DNA of 64,000 nucleotides from Naegleria gruberi (Eukaryota): the NCBI GenBank assembly GCA_000004985.1, contig GG738872.1; one strand, 5' to 3'. A program made the translations under genes and the position numbers. Position 1 is the first letter of the stretch. Every line of letters starts with the position of its first letter. Positions 13,901 to 58,466 of this stretch are shown in pieces. The notes under the pieces are model-generated. The model saw only the letters and a list, made by a program, of their open reading frames with translations. It was not told the origin of the DNA and ran no database searches.

Positions 13901-14033
13901 CATCCTCATAGGTTAATCTAGCAGCCTTCTCAGCAGTGAATAAGAAGGATTCCTTTCCCTTCTTTAATTTGGTGGCAGTAGTCTGAGGAAAGACTGTCTG
14001 CAAAAAGGAAAGTTGTCTTTGCAATTCGGTCAT
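7965..14033 (-). CDS. HEATR1: HEAT repeat-containing protein 1 / U3 snoRNP protein UTP10 (2,022 aa, single exon)
   Basis: N-terminus MTELQRQLSFLQ...LLLSPYFLLKASHKAIEYLVRRYKIHIYNVDAIMASIIPYHET matches the human HEATR1 N-terminus (LIHLSPYFLLKPAQKCLEWLIHRFHIHLYNQDSLIACVLPYHET). The C-terminus is a BP28CT-like acidic end (LPEMMPYVAELLESEDEEV). Confidence 0.85.
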   Translation of the reverse strand: MTELQRQLSFLQTVFPQTTATKLKKGKESFLFTAEKAARLTYEDVHVIGADGLKELIRLDQRFGPFQESLFHPSSVDRNREMETKSENEKLDKQVETFMLLLSPYFLLKASHKAIEYLVRRYKIHIYNVDAIMASIIPYHETTFFARFVQLLNITPTKWHFLEPIQSSGVVMSRSTLLQRCYTDFSVFIFICDAMKAYIERSIDNKSFINFYVVLTVEYVSGNKLQEIALKRILSYVFYGLKSFDPDLVAGSLMITTQISSSVTLSVSVVDALIEVLIPVMTKSDTDSVLMCLVFLFQSQPISKMRTSFVKSLSEIEGFVDSVNRLVALNNIDNFLNAFLNTLLEYSFEQNSVTLLEEMVTKIDFTNTVPKVIAVLLNLFISDASFSEIIKKVLLTFERRYSSETDRGLELGLRTLDEEQHGKALEFYSSVFKGSQHEIIPEISTTLYLSLQHHEKTVRILGLKHLGKIAKTTVDEQTKSFITESLLERLNDEDPTILNFVLNLPEVLIYLTPEKIVDKIAHIVKQIEDNKADESSKVLSQTIAEKFLIDKIFSAGSVEKMLTFVFRFLLLTADFKETNVKVIKSLQKLSHPLFKNLSSVTIKDAASTNTQIINAIAKNIGSQPDLALICENTAVKEGLGTKAVLLLLASAMKQATKKDAKLLIASSILRLVKKFSLKSGLAISAKDVFHPNQSANVDTGLSVINLMFYAAYSMLENLEAESLNVKQMINHFNGKSESKFEYTTLLAEFFLTISESRLFDQFTSHIKVLIEKHLKKQSLQFLSVFWASDSEFVSYKPKMRSLLIGVMMMEDDVDYQFLLPGLFIALQNNLSKDMCSAIISCIKRVPGAKLYEHDLKSHLKPLSKDTLKKIATTIESRSFDLSADSSHIQQIITELPTEVADMILKVITVSETTFEKVSLLSSLSQLPSTKVMSSLFSLFTTYLKKIESGETLSRLEILLVSKLIKLVDIDLLTSQNPQKYFEEGLLKAISIAKPATTTSAITFIPSIEVVNNITSHLLKNISEKNQKALFDTIAKVLRSSTNTKLTQVYQQILKQLPLNPEILKNYIPTTTKGMDTSDDSTDNLSELSNILELVQIMKSVPKRESLAPRLFSLLKELRVELDTNKYRVEYPITMILSVLYSISTKLDEEGEERNVLAKKVEKTFDVDLILKCLTESDSSQIRNHAILLLGELASIFPLQIIEQILAVMKAVEGSLKEKEGFAFDAIQKTVLQIVPKLVEQNMDIKFIVNVFVNSMKYIPKEKRLSFFSSLVKGTSRKNIYGFVLLMLTQCVKNGDQEDSAMITAFCHELVEYFQVSKQLVALVKLVNIGLSISKDDDPKNSFYTPSEYSDEERLALLVFILEFISEHLSSMEFLRMLILEEEKDKESSQSYLLTVAENLNQIRDNIKEPTVVDLVDEVYAKSQQLLSSQSFVAMIKALLDSSSVTMRERALFILNTRLTDEASRMVSKLIEDEDVFITLLKRLKAILSDAKSSNFLVQGSIISVELMARRFAKNKPKRFVAITPAVIAHLQHKSAAIISSAALCLSTLCFELGSDSLEFLPQICPTFTEHISAVIAKEEDILEDEDEKDDADSKQLLVFGILSALELISRVHLKFMSPYLKSIMNILLSTRIIHSTSKKIAQKASDILFFLATNAETRHILEPVFASLEASVAFGHESVVKLMTVVYEIVNVMDAKSVESFHLNIIDFFLEALDLRRKGKFEGKALETVEKAICSSFEAFVLKLNEDLLKPSIKKMLDWAREPVSAKEDSASNYLDYGDHKFAPPDAARLIAFYKIVISMNIKLGFLFIPYFGYLWQNIIRDIKAVCGEEDEESDEEEETKENSKKRKLKELTTKKQPKLCIISSSEERNQLAYLILNALTLCFLNDRESFVSSNDRFEQLVEPLAKILGVEEVCEHNYELITKTFGSLASVVTQQQWKPLQYQVLQKTKNESTICKRTAIGCIASFYEYVGKEFIIMLPEMMPYVAELLESEDEEVLKDTRNIVLTIEQKTGEEISHFLSE

Positions 14034-30510: not shown

Positions 30511-33500
30511 TTAATTAAGTTGTGTGCCTACTTGATTTTGGTCTGCTTCGATTTCATTCACGAAATATTTGAATGGTGGTTCATAAGCTCTATTCATTCT
30601 TTCAATAACTTCTTGAGAATTTGGACCTTCTACTTTGAATGATGACATAACGTTGCTACTAGTTCCGTAATAAATAGCCTCAGATTTACCAAACTCTTGG
30701 TATTCTTCTGCCTCTTTTTCCTCTTCTCTTGAGATAATTCTATCTCTATTGGTTTTTGAAATGAACAGGTTCTTGATTGGTTTGAAAATTCTTTGTTTGA
30801 TGAAAGTCTTGGCAGTAGTATTCTTTGTAAAGTACATAAACCATACACCCATAATTCCCATAAATGCCAATCCACTAAATACAGTGTGCATTATAAACCA
30901 TGCATTAGCTTTGATTCTAATACCAAAGAATAAGGTCATACTTCCATGATAAATTGCCATGATTGACATTACAAGGGAACAAATAAGAGTAACAAGTTTT
31001 CTGTGAGATTTGAAATTACTAGTTAGCACTCCCTTACAAGCTCCTTCTGAAACATGTCCATAGATATACATAATAACGTATCTATCAACAAGATGTTTGA
31101 AAATCATGTAAAATAAGCAACACAATAGAATCAATGGTGAAAACAAAGAGTTTGTGATACAAATGGCTAGAATGGTTAACATGTATGAATACTCATATTC
31201 AAAGTAAAAAAGAGATAATTCACAAGCTTTCAACTTTTCCAATGGACTTGTCTTTGGAAGACTCTTAGTTCCCCACAAGTAATAGATCAAGTTGTAAATT
31301 CTTAAAATATCTTCACAGTTTTTGAGAATTGCTGTTTGTAAAACAAAGTTAAAAAAGTAAGAACCAGCACCTGGTAAAAACATATTACTCAACATTTGTG
31401 AAATATTGCCCTGTTGTTGAATCAAGTTAATGAAGGCATCGAAACTGGTAAGAGATAACATTGGCATAATTAATGTTGATAGTACGAGATACATGAACAA
31501 TCTAGCAATAATCTTTCTCATATATCTGGATTTGGATCTGAATTTGGAAAAATCTTGAGCATACCAAACACCATACGGAAGGAAAATAGAGAACAAGTGA
31601 AGGGCTAAAGTTGGAGCATATTGGAAAACAATTGAACCAAATTCACCAGCACTTTCTAATGGAATTGTTAATAAAATAAATAAATGAATAACAACGTACC
31701 CTTAATTCTAAACAATGAGATGTGAACTATTGGAATTCTTGTAAGTGATTCAAGAGATGAGAACAAAGCCATAGGAGTTGTCAAGAAAACAAATATTAAA
31801 ATGACAATGAATTGCATCAAAATATTTCTAAATGAATCGAAAAAGCCAGTATATGTTAACATATTTTCCCAGTTGATATCATCAGGTTCATATGCCTGCT
31901 TGATTTGGAATGTAATATTTCTAACAGTTGAGACAGATAAAACATCTCCTTCACTTTGAATATCACTTAATGTGGAAACTTTGATTGGCATTTTGATGTC
32001 ACCTCTCTTGTAGTACATATCCAAACATTGTTCTGCATCTTTGGCTGCTTCAAAAACAATAAATCCATATCTTAAACATGGAATGATATCATGTTCAGCT
32101 CCATACTCATCTTTCTTTACACTAGCATAAATTTTATCCCAGTGTTGCATATCAAGTCTTAACTCTCGTTTTCTTTCTTTCAACTGACCGATTTTGCTTG
32201 TGTGATCTCTGTAAACACGTCTCCAAAAAGCGTGCTTTTCTTTGAGATGAATTTCTTGCAGAAACTCATAATGTTCAAGTTGATCACAAATGGATTGGTA
32301 ATCATTTTGCATTTGAATTCTATCATAAACATCATAGATAAGAACAGCTTTGTGTACTTTCAATCCTGGACACAATTCTTCCTTCACCATTTTTTCAAAT
32401 TGAGGTTCACTCTTGAAATCACTTGGAATATTCTGAACTAGAACACTTCTAGAACTGAGTAGAATACTTTCTTGTTTTTCAGTTTTGGCTTTTCCATAAT
32501 TTTCTTTAGAGACAATATCGTGTCTTGAAAACTTAAATAAGAACAAGCCAAATATGAATGAAACACCAAATGAGAGAAATACGTGGACCAAGAGCAGGAA
32601 TGGACTATCTAAGACCATTGAAATTGTAGTTCTCAAGAGAGGATAATCACTAGGAGCAACTGTATATCCGTTAAAGTCAAACTTCATGTCATTAATATCT
32701 GTGCTTTGTGTCATGTGAAGAGGAAGGAGAACAATAGAACACAACAGAGCAATTAAAAACATGGCGGAAATGAATTCTTTTTGAAAGAGCAAATAAACAG
32801 CAACATCTCTTGAATATCTGTTTAAAAGTCTTTCCATATCTTCATGATTATGTGTCTTTGAAACAAAAGAAAGCAAAACATCAATTGCAAAGTTTGTAAA
32901 TTCGACAAGGAATTCATACTTTTCCTTGGCAAAGGCAATAAACTTTTCTTTGAATGTTCCTAATTTTGCTACAGTTTGTTGATAAGGAATATATGGAATA
33001 GCCATTGATATTTTCCTTGTTGGAGATCTAGAAAATATATTTTCTGATCTTTGATATGTTGATTGACTGCTTTGAGTATTTGTAATATTTGATTCTTGAT
33101 CTATATCATCATCTTCACTTTCTGAGTCTTCATCTTTCAAATCCAATAAATTAATAAATTTTGAATCTAATCTGACTCTATTAATGATTGAGGAATTTTC
33201 TAAAAAGTCCTCGTCAACTGTTGGATAAATATCACCACCCTTATCCTTATAGTTAATATAATTATTTCTAGATCTGATGTTTTCCTTTACATTTTTCAAT
33301 AATTTCTTCTTTTCTTTCAAATTAAAAAGTGGTAAGAAAGGTCTGAAAAGGAAGAATATAATCAAGAATATTAATCCAATAGACAAGTTTGTTACAATTG
33401 TAAAAGTTACACCGCCTTGCGACATATCAATCACAATAGTTCCATTATTTACATTAGAATCATTTGGCTTATCATCAATTGATTTGTTTGTTTCCAATGT

Positions 33501-33818
33501 TCTAGTCAAATCAATTACATAATCATTTACTCTATCATCAAATGATGAAATATCTACAAAATAATTCCTTCTCGAATTCATACTAAATTGTATCGGTGGC
33601 GTTGTTATTCTGCTACTAATTGTATTATCAAGCCTATCATTATTATTATTACTATTATAACTATCACTCATCACACCACAGTATCCTCCACCTACAAAAA
33701 TCATTAAAATAATCAGGAGGAACCCTAGCCTGCAACGAGCAGCAGCACCACTACTCTGCACATTCCTTCTCCGAGAAGTAGAATCATCACCGATGGAGGG
33801 AATTGCTAACAGAGACAT
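30511..33818 (-). CDS. OSCA/TMEM63/CSC1-family mechanosensitive cation channel (~1,088 aa), two exons (31700..33818, 30511..31655), with a long N/S-rich N-terminal extension
   Basis: Cytosolic RRM-like domain between TM helices (KVHKAVLIYDVYDRIQMQ...YGFIVFEAAKDAEQCL) followed by the multi-pass 7TM region (FLPGAGSYFFNFVLQTA...). A 44-nt GT..AG intron (31656..31699) joins the two track ORFs in frame (...SLFRIK|ESAGEFGSIVFQYAP...). Confidence 0.75.
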
Positions 33819-34026: not shown

Positions 34027-35184
34027 TTACAATGAAAAGTGATAGAATTCTCTTCTGAATTTTAAATCACCATAATCACAATAGAATCTACAGGGTGATT
34101 TCAATTCAAATTTGTAATAACCAGTATCTATTATACCTCCATAGTAAGAGTGATCGTAATAGAAATAATCGAACGTTGTTGTGTGCTCTGCAATCATTTC
34201 AAAAGTGCTAGTTGTTTTTTTAGTGTCCACAATATCTGGACTAAAGGTGGATGATTCGATTACTCGAAGTTTTTCTCTTTTGGTGTAGATTCCAGCTAAT
34301 GTATCTGTCATGCAAACAAAGAAACATCCAATTAAGACTCTGTACACTCCAATTTCTTTACAATCGTGGAAAGTACTAGGATTTCCCTTATTGTAAATTC
34401 TACCTTTCAGTTTTTTAGGTGTAAAATGTCTGTAAATTTGGTCAATTGTGAGGAGATTGTAAGAATGTTTGAGGTTTGTTAAATCCAACATGAAACATGA
34501 ATTGCTGCCATCAATTTTCCCCATCAGTAGGTAACTAGTCAAGTTTGTGGTTTTACAAGAATCAAACGTTTTGAGCTTGATATAAACTTGCTTTTTTTCT
34601 GGATCAACATCAAGAACATCGACCAATCTTGAAAGTATTTCATTCTCTAACATAACCTTCGAACTGGATAAATTCAAATATTTGACAATTTCTGTGATGG
34701 AATTGAATTTCAAATCAAATTCAATACGTATCATGTTAGCATTCTTTCTATCTGTCTTTACAATCTTTTTGAAAATATCCCCCCTCGTACTCTTATTTGC
34801 CTTGTTGAAACTCTGTTTTTCAATTCTATTTAAATGATCAAAATCACATTTGAATCGAATAATTATCTTGGATTGTTTAGTATAAATGTTATTATCATTA
34901 TAAATTGTTGAATATAAACTGCCATTATAGAGCTCATTCTCTAGCCTAAAGTCTTCATTTGTTCCTTCGATAATTGGTTCATAATTTTGTTTATCCATAA
35001 AGCATTCTTTTAGTTGATGTTCAAAATCCTGTTTTCGTCCACAAAAATTGACTTTTGTCTTGACAATTATTCCAAAACTTTTCAAAATTTCCAAAAGAGA
35101 AGATGAATCAACAACTGACAATGCCTCTCTATGTTTCTTATCTTTAGGTATTTTTATTGGATGGTTGAATTGACTTGAAGACAT
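34027..35184 (-). CDS. Hypothetical protein (385 aa, single exon). Contains a K-I-D-G element but no convincing nucleotidyltransferase motif set
   Basis: Clean ORF with ATG at 35182-35184 in an A-rich context. No confident family recognised. Confidence 0.45.
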   Translation of the reverse strand: MSSSQFNHPIKIPKDKKHREALSVVDSSSLLEILKSFGIIVKTKVNFCGRKQDFEHQLKECFMDKQNYEPIIEGTNEDFRLENELYNGSLYSTIYNDNNIYTKQSKIIIRFKCDFDHLNRIEKQSFNKANKSTRGDIFKKIVKTDRKNANMIRIEFDLKFNSITEIVKYLNLSSSKVMLENEILSRLVDVLDVDPEKKQVYIKLKTFDSCKTTNLTSYLLMGKIDGSNSCFMLDLTNLKHSYNLLTIDQIYRHFTPKKLKGRIYNKGNPSTFHDCKEIGVYRVLIGCFFVCMTDTLAGIYTKREKLRVIESSTFSPDIVDTKKTTSTFEMIAEHTTTFDYFYYDHSYYGGIIDTGYYKFELKSPCRFYCDYGDLKFRREFYHFSL

Positions 35185-35259
35185 TTTTTTGTTTAGAGAG
35201 TATGAACTTCAATTCCACAAGTTCACTTCTTAATAAACATATAAAAATAACTTTAAAAA
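35185..35259. promoter_or_regulatory. 75-bp AT-rich head-to-head intergenic region shared by divergent genes 34027..35184 (-) and 35260..36600 (+). Putative bidirectional promoter
   Basis: Start codons of the two divergent genes are only 75 bp apart. Inference only. Confidence 0.3.
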
Positions 35260-36600
35260 ATGCAAACACAATCTTGTCCGGTAACAGGTGATTCTGATTC
35301 TACAATATTACCACTTGTAGCCATGATCGGAAGCAAAATGTCTTCTTTTCAATCGTTCTTCATGCTCAAGGCCAGAATGTTGTATCATTGTAAAGGGTTG
35401 GATAAAAGGTATTTTGAAAAATGTCAAAAGATTGCCTATGAATCGAGAGGACATTTCAGAATTACTGCCTTTGATATAATGTGGAATGAGAGTGGATACA
35501 GGGATAAGACATTTGATTTAAGATATGACAAAATGAATGATGAATTTAAAATGGGAATATTATATGAAAATAATAGAAAATTAAAGAGTTTGATGAAGAT
35601 TTCATTAATGGCTGATGGACATATTGTGGCCATTGATTTGGAGGAGTATCAATATTCAACTAACTCCAAAAAATACATTGAAACAATGAGAGAGCATTTT
35701 CTTATTGCAAAAATGAGTGGAAAACATTGTATGATAATTGTAAATATTTCAGAATTTGATAGAACATTTGAAAAACTTAATGATTTGATGGAAGAAATTC
35801 AGAAAATTTTGAAGGAATTTTCCATGTCAAATATTCACATTGTTGGTATTCAAGGTAATTCCAATTTCTCCAAATTGGATCCATTTGAAAGGATGCCTCA
35901 TCCATTGTTTTCCAAATTAACTTGTACCGAAGCAATAATTGAATTCAGAAAGGAAATTGTGAAAGAAATTGAAAATACTCAGATTACCCAAAATAATGAA
36001 GGAGACAGTTTAGTGTATGCAGTTATGGGAAAGGAGAAAATAGGAGGGATTGGAACTACAGTGATTGGAAGAGTAATTTCTGGTTCTATTCAATTTGATC
36101 AAGAGGTAAAAATTACAGAAACAATTCTCTCAAATGTGAAAAGCTTAGAAATATTTCACGAGAATCAAACCAAAGTGAATAGAGGAGATTTTTGTGGGGT
36201 GGCATTGAAAAATGTTAGAATGGTTGACATTACAAGAGGTAGTTTGATTGGAATAGATCCAAGTCATACATTTGAGGCCATAGTTTACATAACACACTCA
36301 CCAAAGAAAGGATGGAAAGTTGGAGTGACACCCATAGTATTTTCAACTTGTGTGGGGGAGGCCTGTAGAGTTATTGAAATAGTGGAAAGGTTGAACAAAA
36401 AGACAAAGACCCCTCTTGTTTCCAAACCAAGCAATTGTAAAGAAAACGAATTAGTTAGATTGAGATTTAGTTGTCATAAGGGCATTCAACTATTCAGTGA
36501 GGAACGATGGAGAAGAATCATTTTAATTCACAATAACAAAGTCATGGGAGGTGGTTTTATTACCTTGGTTGGTGGTACTCATTACAATGAGAATAAATAA
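35260..36600 (+). CDS. eEF1A-like translational-GTPase paralog with degenerate GTP-binding motifs (predicted pseudo-GTPase), 446 aa
   Basis: Collinear with eEF1A over its whole length: N-terminus ...IGSKMSSFQSFFMLKARMLYHCKGLDKRYFEKCQKIAYESRGHFRITAFDIMWNE vs eEF1A [49 protein letters not shown]. Domain II KIGGIGTTVIGRVISGSIQFDQEV vs eEF1A [24 protein letters not shown]. The P-loop GHVDSGKS is replaced by GSKMSSFQ, there is no DxxG, and NKxD is replaced by NISEFD. Confidence 0.7.
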   Translation: MQTQSCPVTGDSDSTILPLVAMIGSKMSSFQSFFMLKARMLYHCKGLDKRYFEKCQKIAYESRGHFRITAFDIMWNESGYRDKTFDLRYDKMNDEFKMGILYENNRKLKSLMKISLMADGHIVAIDLEEYQYSTNSKKYIETMREHFLIAKMSGKHCMIIVNISEFDRTFEKLNDLMEEIQKILKEFSMSNIHIVGIQGNSNFSKLDPFERMPHPLFSKLTCTEAIIEFRKEIVKEIENTQITQNNEGDSLVYAVMGKEKIGGIGTTVIGRVISGSIQFDQEVKITETILSNVKSLEIFHENQTKVNRGDFCGVALKNVRMVDITRGSLIGIDPSHTFEAIVYITHSPKKGWKVGVTPIVFSTCVGEACRVIEIVERLNKKTKTPLVSKPSNCKENELVRLRFSCHKGIQLFSEERWRRIILIHNNKVMGGGFITLVGGTHYNENK

Positions 36601-36776: not shown

Positions 36777-37900
36777 ATGACAAAAGGATCCATCAGATTG
36801 GCATTAGATAAACCATATTATATTGCCGGAGAGGTAATTACTGGTAATTGTGAGGTGAATATTTCTCAACCTGTACAAGCTGCTGCCCTCACTATTAAAT
36901 GGAAAGGAATGGAAAGAACCAAGTTTGTTATTTCTAGAATGGAGACTTATGATGCTGGTGGTGGTAGAACAGAAACTAGAACAGTCCATGATAAGTTTGA
37001 ACAAGAAAAGACCTTCTTCAAGACTCAAATGGTTTTAGGTTAGTTTTTATTAATGATCAAAAATTGTTAATGAGCAAAATATTAATATGTGTGATGATGA
37101 TTTAATTATATTTGCAATGAATTAATTATTTAAAATTAATAGGAAGTTTTAATGGAGGAATGGCAATGCCAGGTACTTATTCATTCCCTTTCCAATTCCA
37201 ATTACCAGCTGATTTGCCAGGTGGATGCAACATTCATCGTACTGAATTCGGAAATGAATATAGAGCAGCTATTATTTACAAAGTTAAATCCAATTTGGAT
37301 AATGTTAATGAAAAGGATATTAAGGATAAGAGATACTTGTCAATTGTTCCTAGATCTTTGACTGTTCCTCAACCAGTTAGTTGTCACAATGAAAAGAGTT
37401 TCCTCTTTGGTGGTTCAGGAAAGCTTTTCATGGATGCTACCATTCCAAAGAATGTTTTCATTCCAGGTGAAACAGTTCCTGTCCGAGTTATTATTGACAA
37501 TCAATCAAAGAAGAATGTTGACAAATTGAAAGTTAAACTTATGCGTGATGTTAAACTCAATTGTAAGGGAAGAACAATTCAATATTCAGAAGAAGTCAAT
37601 CGTAATGTTTTCAATGGAGTTGACAAGAAATCAAAACATGATAATGTATTGAATTATGGTTTACCAGCAAACATTTTCCCAAGTACTGAAGGTTCAATGA
37701 TTTCCCATATTTATCACTTGGATATTGAATGTGATGTTGCGTAAGTTTTATATTAATTTTCATCATGTTATTAATTCAATATTACACTTAGAATGGCATT
37801 CGATTTGGAAGTTCACCCACGTATTGAAATTATCTTCATGCCAGCCATGAATCAAGCTTTCTATTTCTATGATAATATGCCAAAAGGGTGTTGGAAGTAA
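36777..37900 (+). CDS. Arrestin-domain-containing protein (ARRDC/Aly-like; N and C arrestin lobes), three exons (36777..37038, 37143..37740, 37792..37900)
   Basis: Arrestin-N-like start (SIRLALDKPYYIAGEVITGNCEVNISQPVQAAALTIKWKGMERTKF) and an arrestin-C-like second lobe. Introns of 104 nt (37039..37142) and 51 nt (37741..37791), both GT..AG and AT-rich. Confidence 0.65.
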
Positions 37901-38057: not shown

Positions 38058-39278
38058 ATGGTCATCTTGACATCATTAAACATTGAGGCATCGTTGAATT
38101 TCACCAAAACAGAAAAAAGAATGCCACACCACAAACCTCGCTCTGTAATTATTGATGTTGGCTCATTGCACACAAAAGCAGGCTTTGATGGAGAGTCAAC
38201 TCCTCGAGTAATTGCAACACTACTTGCCAAACAAAAGATTACACATTCCAGTACTAGAAATGTTCTAATGCATTTACAGAATCCACTTGTTTCACCCAAG
38301 AAGGAATACATGATTGGAAAGGAAATTAAGAATCAAAGTGCAATGAATATGGCTCTTTTTCATCCAGTGGAAAGAGGAAAATTCAAAGATTTGAAACAAT
38401 TGGAGAAATTGTGGGATTACATGTATGAAACTGAATTGAAAGTTTCAACTAGTGATTGTAATTTGTTAATTGCTGATAATATTTTCAATCCTGAAGAGAA
38501 TAGACAGAGAGAGCATTGTGCTCAAATATTATTCGAATCTCTAAAAGTGCCCAGTCTCTTTTTCGAGCATCAATCTGTTCTGTCAATGTTTGGGGCAGGA
38601 AAATTGACAGGCGTTTTAATTGATTCAGGATATGGAATCACCCATACTATTCCATTCTTTGAAGGAATTCCTTTAAGAGATGCAATTGAAGTTTCTAATT
38701 TTGGAAGTCAAGATTTGGATCAATTTTTAATGAATTGTTTAATTAATCTTTCGGATAATTTGAAAATTAATCAAATTAAACAATGCATAAAAAATATTAA
38801 GGAAGAATTATGTTTCATTAAGGCAGATCCACTTGCTCACAGTGATTGTAAACCTTATGAACTGCCAGATGGAACAATGGTAGCTCTGAGAAATGAACTA
38901 TTCGAAGGCGGTGAACTATTCTTCAAACATCAATTAGCAGATAAGAGTTTCCATGGTATTCATCAAATGGCACATCGATCCATTCTCAAATGTGAACCAG
39001 AAATTAGAAAAGATCTCTATTCTAATGTTGTACTAACAGGTGGAAATTGTAAATTATTTGGAATAGAACATCGATTAAAGAGAGAAATGAAATCACTCAC
39101 AGGAAAACAAATTAAAATTCACTCGACTCATTACCATGATAAGGAATGTTTGAGTTTTATTGGTGGTTCAATAATAACTTCAATATCGACGATGGATGAG
39201 GCATGGATAACAAAGAAGGAATGGGATGAAATTGGACCTGATGCATTCATAAGAAAGGGAACAATTATTATTGATTAA
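38058..39278 (+). CDS. Divergent actin-related protein, most similar to Arp10/Arp11 (dynactin ACTR10)
   Basis: SVIIDVGSLHTKAGFDGESTPRVIATLLAKQ vs human ACTR10 [31 protein letters not shown]. The actin-fold core is conserved (GVLIDSGYGITHTIPFFEGIPL). The start may instead be the internal MPHHKPRS at 38121. Confidence 0.6.
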   Translation: MVILTSLNIEASLNFTKTEKRMPHHKPRSVIIDVGSLHTKAGFDGESTPRVIATLLAKQKITHSSTRNVLMHLQNPLVSPKKEYMIGKEIKNQSAMNMALFHPVERGKFKDLKQLEKLWDYMYETELKVSTSDCNLLIADNIFNPEENRQREHCAQILFESLKVPSLFFEHQSVLSMFGAGKLTGVLIDSGYGITHTIPFFEGIPLRDAIEVSNFGSQDLDQFLMNCLINLSDNLKINQIKQCIKNIKEELCFIKADPLAHSDCKPYELPDGTMVALRNELFEGGELFFKHQLADKSFHGIHQMAHRSILKCEPEIRKDLYSNVVLTGGNCKLFGIEHRLKREMKSLTGKQIKIHSTHYHDKECLSFIGGSIITSISTMDEAWITKKEWDEIGPDAFIRKGTIIID

Positions 39279-48465: not shown

Positions 48466-51400
48466 TTACAATTGGCAAGTATATTTGTAAACTACACCAT
48501 CCTCACCACCACAGTATAATTTTTTACCATCACTAGTTAAATAAAGACAGGTAACAGCAGATTTGAGATCTTTGAGAGTAACAGACTTGGTCAAAGTGAG
48601 CTCGTTCTTGTTTGTTTCACTTGAAACAGTGTAATTCATATCAAATATACTAATTTCACCATTTGAATGACCAACAAGCAAGTGTTCTCTACCGTCATAA
48701 GGATTGATAACTTTAAGAGCTGTTGTAGCTGGTGTTCTTCCTAAACTCTTTGAAGCCAAGATGTCACCATTCATAGCATAAACAGTTACTCTGGTCCATT
48801 GACAAACAATAATTTGTCCAGTGGATGGACATACAGAAATAAATGAAATTGGTTTGTCTTCAACATCTGATGGAATTGACAATTCACGAACATACTTCAA
48901 TCTACTTAGATCCCATACAATACATGTTGCATCATAACTTCCACTAACAATGATGTTGAATTCAGAGCTAGCTGTAACGTAAGAGATTTTATCAGTGTGA
49001 CCACACAATCTCTTTTGAATTTCCAAAATTTCAGTCTTCTTATGTTTCTTAATCTTGAAAACACTGACAACACTATCTTCACCACCACAAACAAGCACTT
49101 GATGATCTTTAGTGATAGTAGCATGACTAATTTGAGAGGTATGAAGTCTTTCATGAACTACTATTGGTGTTTCACTGTTACTGTCTCTGAATAATCTTAA
49201 TGAGTAATCAGGATGTCCATAAGAATAGTACTTTGAACTCTTAGCATCTGCAAAGAAGCAATTCTTGTTCACAGCAACAATACCATTAACTAATTGTTTT
49301 TGAGTTAAAGAAATTTGACCAACAGCTAATGGACCCCATAATTGAGGAGTAACAGGTTCAAAAGTGTTGACACCAGAGAAAGGTGTTGTAACTACAACAC
49401 CTGTGTCTGAGACAGTACTACTTTCCTTGTATGTGAGTACCTTGTTGATCTTACCTGTTAATTTTCCAAGGGTTGCAGTAAATGAAGGAGCAACAATACC
49501 TCCTTGTAAATCGGCAACAATTGTACTTCCTGCGTCATTGGCATATGTTACATCATCTGCAACAATACCCTTGAGCTTGTTGAAAGAAACACAAATAACA
49601 TTTGGATCAAGAACCTTCTTAAAACTTGGTAATACGACTGGTTGTGTGTTAACAGCAAGTACAAGATTACTAATAAGTCCTGAGCTACCAACAAGTGCAC
49701 CAACATTGCCATCGGATGCTTCACCACCTGTAGTTTGTGTACCAACAGTTGGTAATTGATCAGCAGCAGTAATATTTTCAGGAGTTGGACTAATAGTAGG
49801 TTGCTTTTCAATTAATTGATTGGTATTTCTCTTTGGATGTGGTTTTGTGAACAATTGTTGTGGAGTATTACCAAAGTTACTGATTTGAGAAATGATAGCT
49901 CTCTTTTCGATTTCATTCGAAATATTATCAATATCAACAGATCCTTCATATGTTAAATAGAAGAAAACATTCAATGCTTTTTCTGCTTCTGGACCTTTTT
50001 GCTTGAAACCAAATATTAAATCTACCCATTCATGCAAATGTTCAGAAACATAATCACTTTCCAATGCTTTTCTCATCATCTTTACAAAATATTCAGGATT
50101 ACCGTGAGCCCAAGGTGGTAACTCTACTTCATTGACTGGATTACCATTTTGCTTCAAGCCAAACTGTACGTTATTCTTGTTGATCAAAAATTCAGGAAGA
50201 ACGTAGAATTCAGGAATCAATTCCTTAACATCTGATAAAGAGAAATCAGTTGATGCAGATTCCCAAGTTTCCTTGATTGAGTGGAACATACGATCAGCAA
50301 TATCAAACTTGCCTCCTTGTAATTCAACACATTGAGATGTATAAGGTTCAATTCTCAACATGTAGTAAAGTACAATACCTGCACTTGAATAGTGAGAACC
50401 ATAGTGGAATTTTGGAATATAAGGATCACACCAACTGTGATATCTTTCACGGAAAAGTTTAGCTCTACCATCATCAATAGCACCCATTGGTTTAGATAAA
50501 TCACGATAAATCTTTGGATCATTAAAGTTCAATTCTTCACTACTATAATCTTGTAAGACCCATGGGAAGATTGGATATTGTGTTAAATCGTTAAAAGATC
50601 TTCCAGCTAAAGTGTTCAAGTACATTAAATATTCAAAGTTATCAACTTCTCCCTTTTGCCACTTTGATTGCATAGTCTTGAGTGAAGGGAAGGCCTTCTT
50701 GTGATGTTTGTCTGAAGATTTGAGTTTTTCATACACTTTGTTCATGTCAACCTTCTCAAGTACTAAGAAGAAGTTTCTACCATCACTACAGAATATTTCA
50801 ACTGCAGTTTCTCTCAATAAATATCTTCTCTTGAGAATGTCATTAATATCAGTTAGTGGAATCTTGATTGTTTCATGAGAAATATCAGAAAGTTCATTTT
50901 CACTGACTGCCTGTTGTGCGCTTGATTCAATCAATGTGGAGTGGTCTCCCTTAACTTCTATTAATTTATCATCATCAGTAAGTACATAGTTGTCGATAAT
51001 GTAGGCATTATTCTTACAAATCAAGAATAGAGACTTTTGTCCATCGAGACCATTAATTCTCAAACTGTTATAACTGAACAAAATCATATCACCAGGTTCG
51101 ATAAGTTTTCTAATCTTGAAATCTTCACCCATTTCTTCTTCATACATTGTAAGTAAATCGTCATCATCAACTTCATCAGCAGTAGCATTTTCCAGAGTTG
51201 TTCCTTCATGAGTATTATCACTTTCCATACTTTCATCCAATGATTCCAAATCACCTCTAGATCTGTTAATTTCAAGTGGTCTTGGACTTCCTTCAAGAGA
51301 AATATCTGTTGTATCAAGAGTAATGGATGGAGGAGCAAGTGCTTCAAGATCCTTGTCATCAAGTTCCTTCTTTGGTTGTAACATTTCACGAGGCTTTGCA

Positions 51401-54400
51401 GGTGACAAATAGCTCCATTCTTGGAACTTTTCAAGGTTTTCAATGGCTGGTTTTTCAGGTTGCTTAGGAGAAGAGTCCATGTCAATTAAATTGACAGTGG
51501 ACTTTACAGTAGTATTTCTTTCCTTCTTAGATGCGTGGACACTATTTTGTTCTCTGTTTGGATCGGATTGAATAGCAACTTCATAAGCCTTTTCAAGATG
51601 GAATTTTTCTAACTTGATTCTCATTCTCTTAGGACCTTCAGTTGAATCCAATCTCCATGCCAATGTATTGTCTTCTTTAGCTCTATGAGACCATGTTCCT
51701 CTTTCCATGAACAATAATTCGTAAAGATTGTTCCATGTCTCTCCAGCAAATTTTAATCTAATAATTGATTCTTCAACCAAAACTTGGGTTCTTTCTTCTT
51801 CCATTTCAATAATGTGTTTTAATTGGGATTTGGCATTTCCAAGCAAGAAACCATAATTTTCTCCTAATTTTCTTTCACTTCTTGAGGCAGATCTGTTTCT
51901 CATTAAATCTCCTTCTAACATGTTCAATGCATTATGAGTATGCTTATTTTCACCTTCAATATATCCAGTGAGAGTGGATGCCAAGTTATTATTAAAGAAA
52001 TTGGAGACTTTTTCGTTATTTTCATTAAACCACTTTGTGAAAATAGATACATCAGAATCTAACAAAGATCTGAATCCTTGAACAATACTATTACCCAAGT
52101 CATAGGCAGCTTGAAGAGTTTCATTTGTAATTTTCTCTTTTGGAACCAAGAAAATTGTTGGAAGTAAATTTGTATCGTGATGGGCAGCAACAATCAACTT
52201 CCAGATTTTAACTGCTGTATCCTTAATTGAAACTTCGGAATCATCTGTCATTAGTGTAAACAAAAGGAAGAAAATACAATTAAAATATTCAAAATCAAGA
52301 TTGTTAGGATCTAGTGAAGTTATAAAAGCTTGAGTATCCAACATTGAATTGAGAACTTTCTCTGTAAAATCGCTAGATGATACTTGAACAAATGAATATA
52401 AAATCATTCTGTTAAGGGATCTAAATGGATATGCTGAAGATTCCTTCTTCATACCAACTCCAGTTGTAAAAAGATTTGTTACGGAAAACTTGGATGATAC
52501 GTCCAACTGTTTGGTTGTTGAAATTACTTGGATTATGAAATTCAAAGTATCAATGTAGTGAGTTTTTGGTAAAATAGAAGCATAGTGCATATCAACTACA
52601 TAAGAACAGAAAACTGAAAGGTTTGCTCCAAGTTTGCTATCTTTTGCTTGAACCCAAGCAACCATCTTCTCGCTGGAATAAACCTTGATTAATGACATTA
52701 AGAATGAAGATCTAAATGCCAAGGTTGAAGTTTCACTAGCTTGAGTTGGAGGAGATTTCAATATATCTTCAACAATTTGAACACCTTTGCTTGAGTTGGA
52801 GAGTTCATAGGTTGTGATAGCTCTCAGAATGGAAAGAACTGATGAAGCAATAGAATTAGTTAAGAAGGCATCTGTATCTACCTTTGGTTTTTTGTTCAAC
52901 TCTAGAGAAAATAGCATAATTGATAATGCTTGAAGCGTTTCAGGCTTTCTAAATTGAGTTTTAACATCACTAGATAATCTCCATATTCTCTTGAATACAG
53001 ATAATATTTCTTTAGTAATAGCATTTTCTCTTGGTCTTTCTTCCAATTTAATTGAGTTCAAATCTATTGTAGTAACTGGGCTTGCTTCTTCTTGTTCAAT
53101 ACCTGCTTTAAAAGATCCAACAGAAGAAACAACGTTTCTCAATAAACTCCATCTACGGTTGGCTTGTGATGATTTTTCTTCTGATCTAAAAGATGCAAAA
53201 TAAGAAACAGCTGAAACCTCACCATATAATGCACTCTCAGAATCAGGAGCATAGTTATGAGAAATGAGTTCGATGAGTATTGGAATAACTTCCTTGCAGA
53301 AAATAATATCTGTCATACCCTTTTCATTAAACATTCCTGAAACTTGATCCAAAGAATTCTTCAAATCAGCCTCTGAGACAACGTTCAATGAAGGATAAGC
53401 GAAAATTGTTCTAGTCATCAACAATAATAAGGTGTAATAAACATCTGGTTGATTACAATATGGTATTAAACCTCGTTTTAAACTTGGTAAAATATTATCT
53501 GGCTTTATCTTTCCTTGTAAAAGAAGAAGACAAAGTAATTGGAGAGATAATATCAATGAAATAGGATGAGATTTCTCTCCAACAAATTGATAGAACCAAA
53601 CTTCATCAACATGTTTTGAAAATAATTCAAGGTAATTAACATCTGAACTAGCTAAATCGTATAACATTTTCAATAATAAATTTCTTGCTGCTACATTACT
53701 CAATGAAAGGGTAGTAGCACTTTGACGTCTTAACTTCTTGGAACTTGATGAGGAAACATCAGACAGAGAAGGTGTTTGAGTAAGTGAGAAGGAAGAGTTG
53801 TTTGACTTGGTGTTAACCATAACCCAACTTCCTGCCTTTTGTATCTTTCTATTTCCTGATATGAGAGCAGAATCATCAAGAGAACTCAGCAAAAAGTTAC
53901 AAATAGATATCATATCATTATCTGACATTCTATGCTTGAATAAGTGAGCTAATATACCAGAAATAACTTCAATAATTTGAATGGATGGAGATTCACTCAA
54001 AATATGCAACAATTTGGTAACAATGCCTGTTGTCTTGAGTCTAATAACATTCCAATGAGTATAATAACTTTGCGAAACAAGATTGTCAATTTTTTGGAAT
54101 AATTCAAGTTGAATAGCTGTATCTGTCTTTCTCCAAATATCATAATCAATGATCAAGCAAATAAATGCTTTCAGATTGGTTACAATTTCCTTTTGTTCAC
54201 CACTACCCATAAGTACAAAATCGAATAAAAGTTGAAGAATCTTGCTATCCAACAAAGATGTCTTTTTTCTAATGAAACTTGCAATAATGTCGTATCCCAA
54301 AATTCTTTCTACTTCATCAATTTGTAATGGAGAGTCCATCATCAAATTGTACAAGAGCATTAATGAATCATAAAGAGCTTGAGTAGTTTCAGCTCTATCA

Positions 54401-57400
54401 ATGAGGGCAAGAACAACTACAATACCATCAGAGTTAAGAATATTGTCAGAGAGTGATGTTGGGCAACAAACAAAACTCTTGTCTAATTGTGGTAAGAGTA
54501 CTTTTGGTGACTTTCTATCGCCGTGTAAACTTTCTAAAACCAGTGAATTGTTTCTGTTATCTTGGTCCAATGACTTTAGGGAATGGTTATGAGCGTTGAA
54601 TGCGAATACCAATCTCTCAGGAGATAATTTAGAGGCAGAAATTGATACAATGCTTTCTTTTGCTTCGGTTTCAGTTGAAATCTCTCTAGATGTTGCAACT
54701 CTTTGCAATAATTTAATATAGTTTGGATAGAGATGATATGTAAGAAGATCCATGTGTGGAGTATAGGATCCTTGGAAATAACCTGTGTAAGTATTGTTAG
54801 CAACGAAAATAGATGCAACCGTCTCTGGATAAAGAACATCTTCATAAAGGAAAGAAGGTCCCATTCTCCAAACATCAATACTATCAGCACTATTTTTACC
54901 CAAAATACCAGTAACTTTGGATCCTGCAGCATACGGATTAACAAAACCAACTTTTTGTGATTCTTCCAATTTACCATCAACATAAATCGACATTACACTG
55001 CTCGATAATCTGTTTCTTTGATGGGTTACAACCAAGTGATGCCACTTGTCAGATTCAAATTGAACCTTAGAGAATAAAATTCTCTTTGATTTTGGTCCAT
55101 TTTGGAATTCAAGAAAACCATCTGGTCTGACGTGGAATTGAAGGAATGATTTGCCATCATCTGATTGAATGTTAAGAAGAATAAAAACATTGAGATCACC
55201 AAAGGTTGTTGCTGATAATCTCTTGCTTGCGTTGGATTGTGTTCTTTGATGAGAGTGAGTTCTTCTTTTCTTTTGGGCTGTAGCAGAGACATCTGTTGTA
55301 TTGTAGAACCAACATGAGAAAGTATATCCAGCTGTCATTGAACTATTCCAAGTTCTGTCTGTTAGATTAATAATTGGGCATTCAGATCCCGGCCTATATT
55401 CTACAAATGGAGTGCTAATACCTTTCTTGGCAGCATTCATCAATAATTTCATCATACATTGTGGGTGATCCTTGTCTGCAAAGATTGATAATAATCTTCT
55501 CCACTCCAATTGTGATAATCTGTAACATGCAACTTTTTCGCAAATGTTTAGTAATGTAGCACTAAACTTGTGATTAGTGTCAACCATTTGTCCATATAAA
55601 TTATCCAAAATAAAATCAACAACCTTGATATTGGATAAACCCTCTAGGTTCAATGGACCAACTTTTAACATTAACTCGGTAACTTTCAAAATGGACAATT
55701 GTAAATCCTCACTAGCATGATTGATGAGTTTTAAACAAAACAAAAGACCAAATGGATTATGAAGAATTGGGCATTTTGAAACTGTGAGACCGCCAATATT
55801 CAGATAGAGGTCGTTATCTCGTGATCTAAGGGGAATAGGTGTAACTGGGCTAACAGCCAGAGAAGAAATATTGCCAGAGGAAATGCTATTATAGCTTAAA
55901 TTACCAGAAGAGTTATTTTGATCAAACTCTTCAATACATTTCTCAGTTGCAAAATCAATCAAACATTGGAAAACTTCTTTCTTGTACTCAGTGTTCATTA
56001 TGCCATTTACATTTAAAGCGTCAATTATGGCATTATCACCAATCTTAGGTAAGAATGATAACTTATTCCTTGGATGATTCTGAAGAGATGTAGCCAAAGC
56101 AGTAAACATGGATTGCATTAATCTGATTACGTCCATTTGTTCGTAAAGCTCCTCAGTGTCAGTATTATCATTCTCAGAGTTTGAATCCTCTAAAAGCTTA
56201 TTCAATTGCTTTGAAAGAACTGAACCTGTTGGGCATGGAGTATTAATCAAGATAGAAACACTAGCAACAAAACCGGCGTCTCTAAATGACTCTTTTGCTC
56301 TATCATTACTCTTAAACATTTTAGTAAGAGCATTGAAAATAGCAATCTTGAGTCCAATATTAGATCTCTTTGATGTTTGTAAAATTTCAATCAATACATT
56401 GACATCGATACTTTGTTGGACTGTATCTTGAACAATAATAGTGTGGAACACTTTCAAAGCATACCCTCTAAACATGTCATTAAGTAACATTGTTTGAAGG
56501 ACTGACACACCTCCAACTTCTCTGAATGTACGTACATTATCGTTTGTCTTTTGAAGCATGGAAATTAAAACTTGAATAGTTAAATCTAAGAGTTTCAAAA
56601 TAACCATATTCTTTTCATCATTGTTTTTGAATTGCCCCAACTTGATAATGCTTTCGAATTCATCACAAAGCATACCAACAATTTTTTCAAACAAGTAGGC
56701 TTCCTTGAACCTAATACTAAATCTGGAATCAAAGTTTAACAGTTTGTTAATAAGAGAGAGAACGTTCAAAACTAATTTAGGAGCTGCTTCTCTACTGGTT
56801 AATAACTCTCCAAGCATCTTCAACTCTTCGATTGGTGAAAAATTCAAACCTGCAAATATGAATTCAACTAGTTTTAAAACTGATTGTTGCATTTTCTCTG
56901 AGAGGTCAGGTAAATTTCTTATCAAAATAGCCATATTATGTAAGTGATGTACTGATGGATAATTTAGAGAATTATCTGCAAAGACTACAAGAAGTATTTC
57001 TATAATTTCTTGTTTTAAAATATCCTTGTTTGTTTTCAAGAATATATTAATTAATGATTGATAAATTGCAATATTCTTAATTCTTCTTTCCAAACTAGTA
57101 TTTGCTGAGGAGAAGTTCATTTGTTGAATATAATCTTGTGGAGGCTCTGTTGGTTTTTCTCCAACACAAAGAAGATCGCTAAAGTTTTTAAGTGCTACTT
57201 TCATAACTTCCATATCAGTTTCAAATTGAGTTTCACATTCTATGAGGGCCTCTTGAAGTATTTGATGGCCATTTGAATCATTAAAATCTCTGTACAGGTA
57301 AGGACTTGTTGAAATAGTTTGTTTTAAAATTGAAACAATAGTTTCTATTACTGATGAAACCATTTTGTAATCTGTTGATTTGATATTCTTGAAAGAATCT

Positions 57401-58466
57401 AATAATAAATAAATAATTTTCTTTTTGTGTAAACTGTCAACCAATACAAGATCAGTCTTGATTAGAAGAGCTGAAAGTATATCAAGAGCTAACTTTTGAG
57501 AGAAACTAAACCCTTCTTCACATTGGAAGTTAGTGAGAATTCTTACCAAAGTGAGAACATCCTCGCTCTTTTTTACAGTTTCAGTCAACTCTCTATTGTT
57601 TAAACAGATGTGTATGAAAGATACTAATTGTTGACAAACAACTTCAATAGATTCTCTTGTTGTCAATTCATGTTTTTTTTGTAAAGGTTGATCATCAACT
57701 GTGATAAGTAGAGAACTGGTTTTATCTGAAGGATCAAAATCTTGTACGTATTGTTGACAGTAAAGTTCAATATCCTTTGATGTCATCTTTGAAACTATAT
57801 CTAATATATTTATAATCAATGTGATAATTTTAAAATCCATAATAAATGGAGCTGAAACTTCCTCGAAATTAGAAACCAACATGTTCAAAGTATTTACAAT
57901 ATCAGAGCAATGTTTTTCCTTTGAAATTAAATAATGTATAATAGATAATTTAACACTGTTGAGATTATTTGGTAGTGATGATGAGCTTGGATCGAAACTA
58001 GTATCAATTTGAGTGGTGTTGAAAGGTGAAGGTGGAGGGACATTACTAGTTTCTTTCAAAGCGTTTTCCATATCCTTTTTCATTCTATGTGTCACTGTTG
58101 ATGTAAAAGTTTGTGTGTTTTTGAATCTATCATTAAAAATTTAGAACATTGAATATTTGTAAATTTCACTTACATTTGATGAAAATGTTGTTGAAACATT
58201 GTTTGACTATAAAATACTTCTTGAAATAGGGTTATAATATTATAAAGTGAAGTATCCGTCTCGGAATATAGATTAGACTCGTTTAAAAACACCTCCCATT
58301 TTGTCTTCAAATCAATAAATGTTTGAAAGATCTCTTCACTATTAAAATCCTCTCTAGATATTGGTTTAGCTTCTACTCTTGGTGTATTGTTAGATGTACT
58401 TTCCGTGCCTTTCATTCCAAATACACTTCCAATATACCCAAGCACTGATTTTCGTTTGTTGGTCAT
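48466..58466 (-). CDS. BEACH-domain protein of the LvsA/neurobeachin/LYST family (~3,300 aa), two exons (58174..58466, 48466..58126)
   Basis: BEACH core (...LTQYPIFPWVLQDYSSEELNFNDPKIYRDLSKPMGAIDDGRAKLFRERY...) followed by C-terminal WD40 repeats. A 47-nt GT..AG intron (58127..58173) joins the 98-aa 5' exon (MTNKRKSVLGYIG...) in frame to the 9.6-kb main exon. Confidence 0.85.

Follow-up and report, generated by a model that had tools for sequence, protein, structure and literature searches.

The 64,000-nucleotide stretch of Naegleria gruberi contig GG738872.1 analysed here (assembly GCA_000004985.1; hereafter the window) contains, at 35260..36600 on the plus strand, a complete coding sequence (CDS) of 446 codons plus stop, whose product resembles the elongation factor eEF1A in length and domain order and has lost nearly all residues of the canonical GTP-binding motifs. 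The position and size of this open reading frame (ORF), taken from the ORF listing of the window, are exactly those given in an earlier note on this DNA, which had proposed a catalytically dead eEF1A paralogue. The local GC content is about 31-33% and the surroundings are gene-dense. Residues 22-446 of the product are identical to N. gruberi NAEGRDRAFT_49665 (XP_002676402.1, D2VHV7; P0001 in this analysis), annotated as "predicted protein", which identifies the window as nuclear DNA of N. gruberi, and this public model, which begins at M22, looks truncated (window 35260..35325 affected). The most likely start of translation is instead M1 (35260), since residues 17-24 (LPLVAMIG) align with strand beta1 of eEF1A (INVVVIG), since residues 19-24 were modelled as a strand by AlphaFold so that a start at M22 would cut strand beta1, and since the gene call made independently on a metagenome contig of a sister strain likewise gives 446 residues. 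Only 16 residues precede strand beta1, and no N-terminal extension of the HBS1_N, Ski/exosome-binding or PAM2 type is present; such an extension is ruled out by the ATG of the neighbouring gene, located just 75 bp upstream.

Comparison of the protein with all PDB chains by phmmer gave eEF1A2 (6ra9) as best match (E=5e-19, 72 bits), collinear over query residues 38-398, followed by yeast eEF1A and archaeal EF1A, with EF-Tu scoring much lower (32 bits or less). In Pfam, GTP_EFTU_D2 was matched at residues 265-330 (E=8e-10) and GTP-eEF1A_C at residues 338-435 (E=1e-6), in agreement with the claimed collinearity with eEF1A over three domains. The overall identity to eEF1A is about 24%; it is highest for domain II (36-38%) and falls to 20-23% for the G domain and 18-19% for domain III. 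Domain II (residues 251-335; 36010..36264), a beta-barrel that the note had called strongly conserved, is thus the domain closest to canonical eEF1A relative to the other two, but its absolute identity remains modest; its motifs include KIGGIGT..GRVISG, SLEIFHE and a family-specific GDFCG replacing GDNVG. Domain III (residues 336-446; 36265..36597) carries the signatures TFEAIVYITHSPKKGWKVG and RRIILIHNNKVMGGG, which are common to the related proteins P0063, P0064, P0067 and P0211 described below.

The degenerate G domain (residues 15-250; 35302..36009), predicted by AlphaFold2 (AF2) to consist of alternating strands and helices, did not match PF00009 (GTP_EFTU) in Pfam even at E<=1, and this domain is likewise absent from the precomputed Pfam list of P0001. 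The G1/P-loop GHVDSGKS is replaced by GSKMSSFQ (residues 24-31; 35329..35352), which leaves no GK[ST]; G3/switch II IDAPGHRD is replaced by ILYENNRK (residues 100-107; 35557..35580), so that neither Asp, Gly nor catalytic His is left; and G4 NKMD is replaced by NISEFD (residues 162-167; 35743..35760), with the Lys lost and two residues inserted. These replacements agree in three independent alignments, in which G5 is also changed from ISG to VGIQG, and the sole residue of a G motif to be retained is the G2 Thr (RDKTFD). The destruction of the GTP-binding elements announced in the earlier note is therefore confirmed for G1, G3 and G4, no intact G motif having emerged after alignment, and from these replacements a loss of GTP binding is inferred. 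Within the G domain, conservation is highest in helix alpha1 with the start of switch I, LYHCKGLDKRYFEKCQKIAYESRGHFR (residues 41-67; 35380..35460), where about 46% of positions are identical to canonical eEF1A by hand count from the alignment. At the position equivalent to eEF1A Ser53, the glucosylation site of Legionella Lgt toxins, the protein carries His65 (RGHFR, residues 63-67; window 35446..35460), and the same Ser-to-His change is found in the less degenerate paralogue P0077.

Changes also extend to the site that would receive the aminoacyl end of a tRNA. The classical aminoacyl pocket of Thermus aquaticus EF-Tu is formed by D227, F229, H273 and N285, in the EF-Tu/aminoacyl-tRNA structure that Nissen et al. 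reportedly described in 1995. When mapped through conserved motifs, these pocket residues correspond to G257, E259, F299 and F311 in the query; the Asn-to-Phe change is invariant across the family, and the Glu that stacks on A76 is kept as E297. Since the pocket residues are replaced, ordinary aminoacyl-tRNA delivery is disfavoured and a changed ligand is favoured.

An AF2 model built on a 40-sequence alignment displays the three-domain eEF1A fold with a mean predicted local distance difference test score (pLDDT) of 77 and a predicted template modelling score of 0.78. The pLDDT values are 86-93 in domain II, mostly 84-96 in domain III and 70-91 for G-domain residues 100-200, while the switch-I equivalent (residues 64-85) falls below 50 and is predicted to be disordered. 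Foldseek comparison with PDB placed ribosome-bound or GTP-form eukaryotic and archaeal EF1A at the top (8g60_EF, template modelling score (TM) 0.74; 3wxm; 9bdp; TM 0.73-0.75), as opposed to a TM of about 0.41 for GDP-form open structures, which is suggestive of a closed, GTP-like shape of the model. A predicted fold that is kept, combined with motifs that appear incompatible with nucleotide binding, is what defines a pseudo-GTPase of the nucleotide-free class, and the protein is assigned to this class as judged from alignment and model.

An exhaustive phmmer search of 1.84 billion representative proteins returned five weak matches carrying derived characters that are common with the query and missing from canonical eEF1A. 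They comprise P0064 (N. gruberi NAEGRDRAFT_71823), P0150 (N. lovaniensis C9374_011189) and the metagenomic proteins P0063, P0067 and P0211/P0069. In these members, GDNVG of domain II is replaced by GDFxG, GEFxG or GHFxG (N to F), domain III begins with FEAx[VI]xI...PKxG including a one-residue insertion, RIILxHNNxxxxxG replaces RFAVRDMRQTVAVG towards the C-terminus, and LYC replaces LDCH. The query has RGDFCG, TFEAIVYITHSPKKG and RRIILIHNN at the first three of these sites and is an exception at the fourth, where it reads VFS. P0150, which had been kept out of the training of the family hidden Markov model (HMM), scored 181 bits with that model versus 83 bits with a canonical eEF1A HMM. As far as these shared characters indicate, the gene is not a singleton and is part of a small multi-copy family that evolves fast and has its centre in Naegleria. 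P0064 and P0150 are just 30% identical between two Naegleria species, their orthology being unproven. Sample ERZ27315067 is the origin of P0063, P0067 and P0211, and if its contigs represent one organism, that organism probably has three or more paralogues.

DxxGH is missing from every family member, the query included (ILYENNRK), and decay of G1 and G4 is graded: the two motifs read GSARVGKS and NKCD in P0150, GPSLSGKG and TKID in P0211, GTPSSGRS and NKIL at the P0067 locus, and are fully lost in P0063 and the query. The simplest reading of this series would be that the family ancestor, with switch II already dead, had given up hydrolysis and that nucleotide binding decayed independently afterwards. 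The available models of some relatives are themselves incomplete. P0064 (337 residues) is without about 125 N-terminal residues that are found in its N. lovaniensis homologue P0150, and P0067 was called as domains II-III only (L083 219..1492, plus strand), an upstream ORF of 185 residues encoding the degenerate G domain with GTPSSGRS and NKIL; one frameshift in an A-rich stretch (near 760-790) separates the two ORFs, representing a true pseudogene or an assembly error. Outside the family, eight protist or metagenome proteins (P0181, P0196, P0212, P0077, P0177, P0178, P0179 and P0163) show graded and apparently independent decay of G1, G3 or G4, and, on the evidence of such motifs, microbial eukaryotes may have produced degenerate eEF1A paralogues repeatedly. 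Word-indexed searches for homologues of the query, of the family alignment and of P0150 returned nearly exclusively canonical eEF1A or fish HBS1L and missed known members, so that they do not inform on the breadth of the family. One metagenome scan gave no confirmed matches, the output of another was dominated by canonical eEF1A at 25-29% identity, and exact-sequence look-ups of the 446-residue product and of P0064 gave no further contigs. A giant-virus origin was also considered and rejected, a scan of viral contigs having found no relatives.

Evidence for selective maintenance was provided by the length of the frame and by a sister strain. At the local composition, the stop probability is 0.079 per codon, which gives a probability of about 1e-16 for 446 open codons, and an unconstrained ORF at such divergence would carry about 35 stop codons. 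A metagenome contig of the sister strain (ENA ERZ929261, 2953 bp; L002) carries the same gene pair, the eEF1A-like gene and its neighbour at 34027..35184, at 97.7% nucleotide identity. Between the two strains, the eEF1A-like CDS shows no indels and 20 substitutions (9 synonymous and 11 non-synonymous), giving a ratio of non-synonymous to synonymous rates (dN/dS) of 0.29 with a synonymous excess significant against neutrality (binomial P=0.009). The neighbour is also retained, its only indel being an in-frame one of 9 bp, with a dN/dS of 0.21. The divergence amounts to 1.5% for the eEF1A-like CDS and 1.9% for the neighbour CDS, compared with 5.4% downstream of the neighbour and 10.7% for the 75-bp spacer between the two genes, which differs at 8 of its 75 positions, a 5-bp indel included, and is 7-fold more diverged than the eEF1A-like CDS. 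Both genes behave as constrained coding sequences under purifying selection.

Taken together, these results suggest that the gene is probably a selectively maintained eEF1A paralogue, in which the three-domain fold has been kept and the GTP motifs lost, and whose product would serve as a nucleotide-independent binding protein outside the elongation cycle. Without the P-loop Lys and Ser, the switch-II Asp, Gly and His, and NKxD, the protein would most likely neither bind nor hydrolyse GTP and would not undergo a ribosomal delivery cycle, and translation would continue to be ensured by canonical Naegleria eEF1A, the presence of which is taken from the literature. The pseudo-GTPase may thus act as a binding module whose constrained surfaces would be the beta-barrels of domains II and III together with the helix alpha1/switch-I stretch, residues 41-67 being possibly a retained interaction surface. 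In view of the remodelled pocket of domain II, its ligand is probably not the ordinary 3' end of an aminoacyl-tRNA; candidate partners include eEF1B, cytoskeletal proteins, Pelota/eRF1-like proteins and RNA. A generic scaffold or binding role of this kind, unrelated to translation, was ranked first, above models of a decoy, of exchange factor sequestration or of a surveillance adaptor.

Several observations weigh against this interpretation. Neither N. lovaniensis nor N. fowleri yielded an orthologue of this paralogue, the exhaustive phmmer search returning solely the gene itself below E=1e-30, so that the gene may be young, very fast evolving or dispensable. In a crude neighbour-joining (NJ) tree, the six members cluster and P0064 and P0150 group with 85% bootstrap, but monophyly of the family as a whole is weakly supported (24-36%, strict monophyly reaching 24%), the long-branch proteins P0181 and P0196 intruding; consequently, the family is defined by common motifs and HMM scores. 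The dN/dS value rests on just the 20 substitutions, and domain II considered alone has 3 non-synonymous and 0 synonymous changes relative to the sister strain, single-domain values carrying no weight on their own. The supplements of four Naegleria omics studies (PMC8296547, PMC11589745, PMC9036621 and PMC10802493) have no entry for the gene, and a full-text literature search by gene, protein and UniProt identifiers found no expression evidence. Finally, a bias of AlphaFold may account for the closed, GTP-like shape of the model.

Among the more specific proposals, the best placed, although unlikely, is that the protein is the founding member of an undescribed heterolobosean family of eEF1A-derived pseudo-GTPases, operating as a nucleotide-independent, closed-shape mimic that would titrate an eEF1A partner such as eEF1B, and so tune translation during life-stage switches, or as a fast-evolving decoy for pathogen factors directed at eEF1A. 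Another proposal, a regulatory mimic in which either a nucleotide-free look-alike would sequester eEF1B or a decoy would divert, in amoebae, pathogen effectors that target eEF1A, is rated a little-favoured possibility and stands next in rank. Nucleotide-free GTPases bind their guanine nucleotide exchange factors (GEFs) most tightly, and dominant-negative small GTPases sequester GEFs; amoebae are moreover hosts of Legionella, whose Lgt toxins glucosylate eEF1A at Ser53. Conservation within the G domain is highest in helix alpha1/switch I, and a multi-copy, lineage-specific and fast-evolving pattern is typical of conflict genes. On the other hand, this proposal is pure inference, the presence of His65 at the Ser53 equivalent means that the protein would not be a substrate decoy for Lgt, the domain II pocket that is also used by eEF1Balpha is remodelled, and the scan of viral contigs found no relatives.

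A role as an mRNA-surveillance adaptor of the HBS1/Ski7 type, in which a GTPase-dead protein would attach to stalled ribosomes or would associate, instead of a tRNA, with Pelota/eRF1-like partners, is less probable again. A precedent exists in Ski7, a non-hydrolysing member of this GTPase branch (PMC4933942). The predicted model resembles the closed form of archaeal EF1A bound to Pelota (3wxm, TM 0.75) as well as Hbs1l and eRF3 complexes (TM 0.71-0.73), and P0150 is more ambiguous than the query, scoring 89 bits with archaeal EF1A, 81 with human HBS1L and 63 with yeast eEF1A. Against this, HBS1 and eRF3 are missing among the best 60 PDB matches of the query, for which eEF1A reaches 72 bits, and the family profile compared with PDB scored 211 bits with yeast eEF1A, 198 with mammalian eEF1A and 182-197 with archaeal EF1A, versus 109-140 with eRF3, 122 with human HBS1L, 87-91 with yeast Hbs1 and about 85 with EF-Tu. 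The NJ analysis joined the family to HBS1 in 0 of 200 bootstraps. Moreover, Ski7 retains GTP binding while the query is without the P-loop Lys and NKxD, and the 75-bp spacer leaves no room for the N-terminal extension found in these proteins. The separation from HBS1 and Ski7 drawn in the earlier note is consequently upheld, and overall the profile scores indicate that the family descends from eEF1A and not from HBS1, eRF3 or Ski7.

Lower still in probability is the idea that the locus is a decaying, unexpressed pseudogene copy of eEF1A whose frame is open by chance. The extreme divergence of the protein (about 24% identity to eEF1A), the failure of the phmmer search to detect an orthologue in other Naegleria species, the expression evidence not found in the literature and omics supplements searched, and the frameshift between G domain and domain II in its relative P0067, if not an assembly error, are in line with such decay. 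They have to be set against the improbability of the open frame and the stop codons expected without constraint, against an indel-free CDS shared by two strains with a low dN/dS next to non-coding DNA that gains indels and changes 7-fold more, against a confidently predicted fold and against family-specific motifs kept across species; decay was the outcome by which the proposal of a functional gene could have failed, and it is not what the strain comparison indicates. That the protein is a working, nucleotide-binding elongation factor using non-canonical motifs is very improbable, because the retained G2 Thr and a G-domain fold predicted to persist are outweighed by the disappearance of GK[ST], of DxxG with the catalytic His and of NKxD, by an undetected Pfam GTP_EFTU domain, by a switch-I equivalent predicted to be disordered and by the replaced aminoacyl pocket residues.

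The eEF1A-like gene lies head-to-head with a gene on the minus strand (34027..35184) that encodes a 385-residue orphan protein matching neither Pfam nor PDB, and the spacer of 75 bp (35185..35259) is confirmed, as is the uncharacterised status that had been attributed to this neighbour. No other head-to-head spacer in the window is as short, the rest ranging from 226 to 1231 bp, and at this length it must hold both core promoters and both 5' untranslated regions; the two divergent genes therefore probably share a promoter region. A gene is likewise arranged head-to-head with P0211, at a distance of 33 bp, but is unrelated to the gene at 34027..35184. Conserved synteny of the head-to-head neighbour was accordingly rejected at the P0211 locus (L001), where the neighbours are not homologous, and co-regulation is physically plausible and without support from conservation.

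Genes surrounding the eEF1A-like gene are of ordinary eukaryotic housekeeping type and include Coq4, a TPR protein, a CSC1/OSCA-type channel, an orphan, an arrestin-domain gene, an actin-family protein, a DCN1-like cullin-binding protein, peroxin-3 and an adaptin. The channel is split on the minus strand into 30511..31596 and 31668..33818 (RSN1_7TM, then RSN1_TM and PHM7_cyt), probably by a 71-bp intron, and the sister-strain contig has indels of 6 bp at 33737 and 8 bp at 33816 at the very 5' end of the channel ORF, which makes it doubtful whether translation begins at the ATG at 33818. Directly downstream of the eEF1A-like gene, on the same plus strand, lies the arrestin-domain gene (Arrestin_N and Arrestin_C; 36777..37043 and 37160..37744) with an intron of about 116 bp, and the actin-family protein follows 1.4 kb downstream of the eEF1A-like gene (38058..39278, plus strand; Pfam Actin, E=1.5e-79), N. 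gruberi being known for an expanded actin family. Two very long ORFs are also found in the window, both on the minus strand, at 7965..14033 (2022 residues) and at 48466..58095 (3209 residues).

eEF1A is among the most conserved and abundant eukaryotic proteins, and a full-length copy kept by selection without its nucleotide-binding elements amounts to a natural separation-of-function allele that isolates the GTP-independent functions of the eEF1A fold. A partner, once identified, could help to explain the long-debated moonlighting of eEF1A, and it would add a class derived from translational GTPases to the pseudo-GTPases. The practical weight is limited, given that the family is so far known from Naegleria and from a single relative sampled by metagenomics and that it evolves fast.

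As to novelty, the literature search found no paper mentioning the locus tag NAEGRDRAFT_49665, no paper combining the terms 'eEF1A' and 'pseudoGTPase', and nothing on project PRJEB11402. The suggestion of an undescribed family thus holds for this gene by name, but two surveys had already noted divergent eEF1A copies in N. gruberi: Atkinson 2015 (PMC4342817) reports several versions of eEF1A in this species, often "highly divergent", and also indicates canonical copies, and a bioRxiv preprint (10.64898/2026.02.23.705090) reports that the EF-1alpha orthogroup is expanded in N. gruberi. The protein is a complete pseudo-GTPase derivative of eEF1A, and the small family to which it belongs was previously undescribed, even though such divergent copies had been noted.

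Compared with known systems, the nearest situation is that of divergent protist EF-1alpha. In Kamikawa 2013 (PMC3699394), 're-modelled' divergent EF-1alpha proteins are described in lineages containing EFL and are proposed to retain nothing but auxiliary, non-translational roles. As in the passages of PMC3699394 and PMC4342817, a long-branch copy here exists beside a presumed translation factor and an auxiliary role is proposed; in contrast, those passages make no mention of GTP-motif loss, the word 'motif' being absent from PMC3699394, and the translating partner would here be canonical eEF1A, as indicated by the literature, whereas in the lineages of Kamikawa it is EFL. Ski7, HBS1 and eRF3 are likewise eEF1A-like GTPase relatives, among which Ski7 no longer hydrolyses GTP and serves as an adaptor, but they differ from the present protein in their N-terminal extensions and GTP binding, and the family profile scores them far below eEF1A. 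Canonical eEF1A itself shares with the query an equal length, three collinear domains, the best sequence match (6ra9) and fold match (8g60_EF), and the motifs KIGGIGT, GR..SG and S.E of the domain II core; the query differs in being without G1, G3, G4, G5 and PF00009, in its replaced aminoacyl pocket and in its identity of about 24% versus more than 70% among canonical eEF1As. Lastly, in pseudo-GTPases such as CENP-M and the pG domains of p190RhoGAP, the GTPase fold is kept, the G motifs are destroyed and the presumed function is one of scaffolding or binding. The eEF1A-like protein would resemble them in its retained fold with dead motifs and in its presumed scaffolding or binding role, and would differ in its origin, since theirs is from small GTPases and its own appears to be from a translational GTPase.

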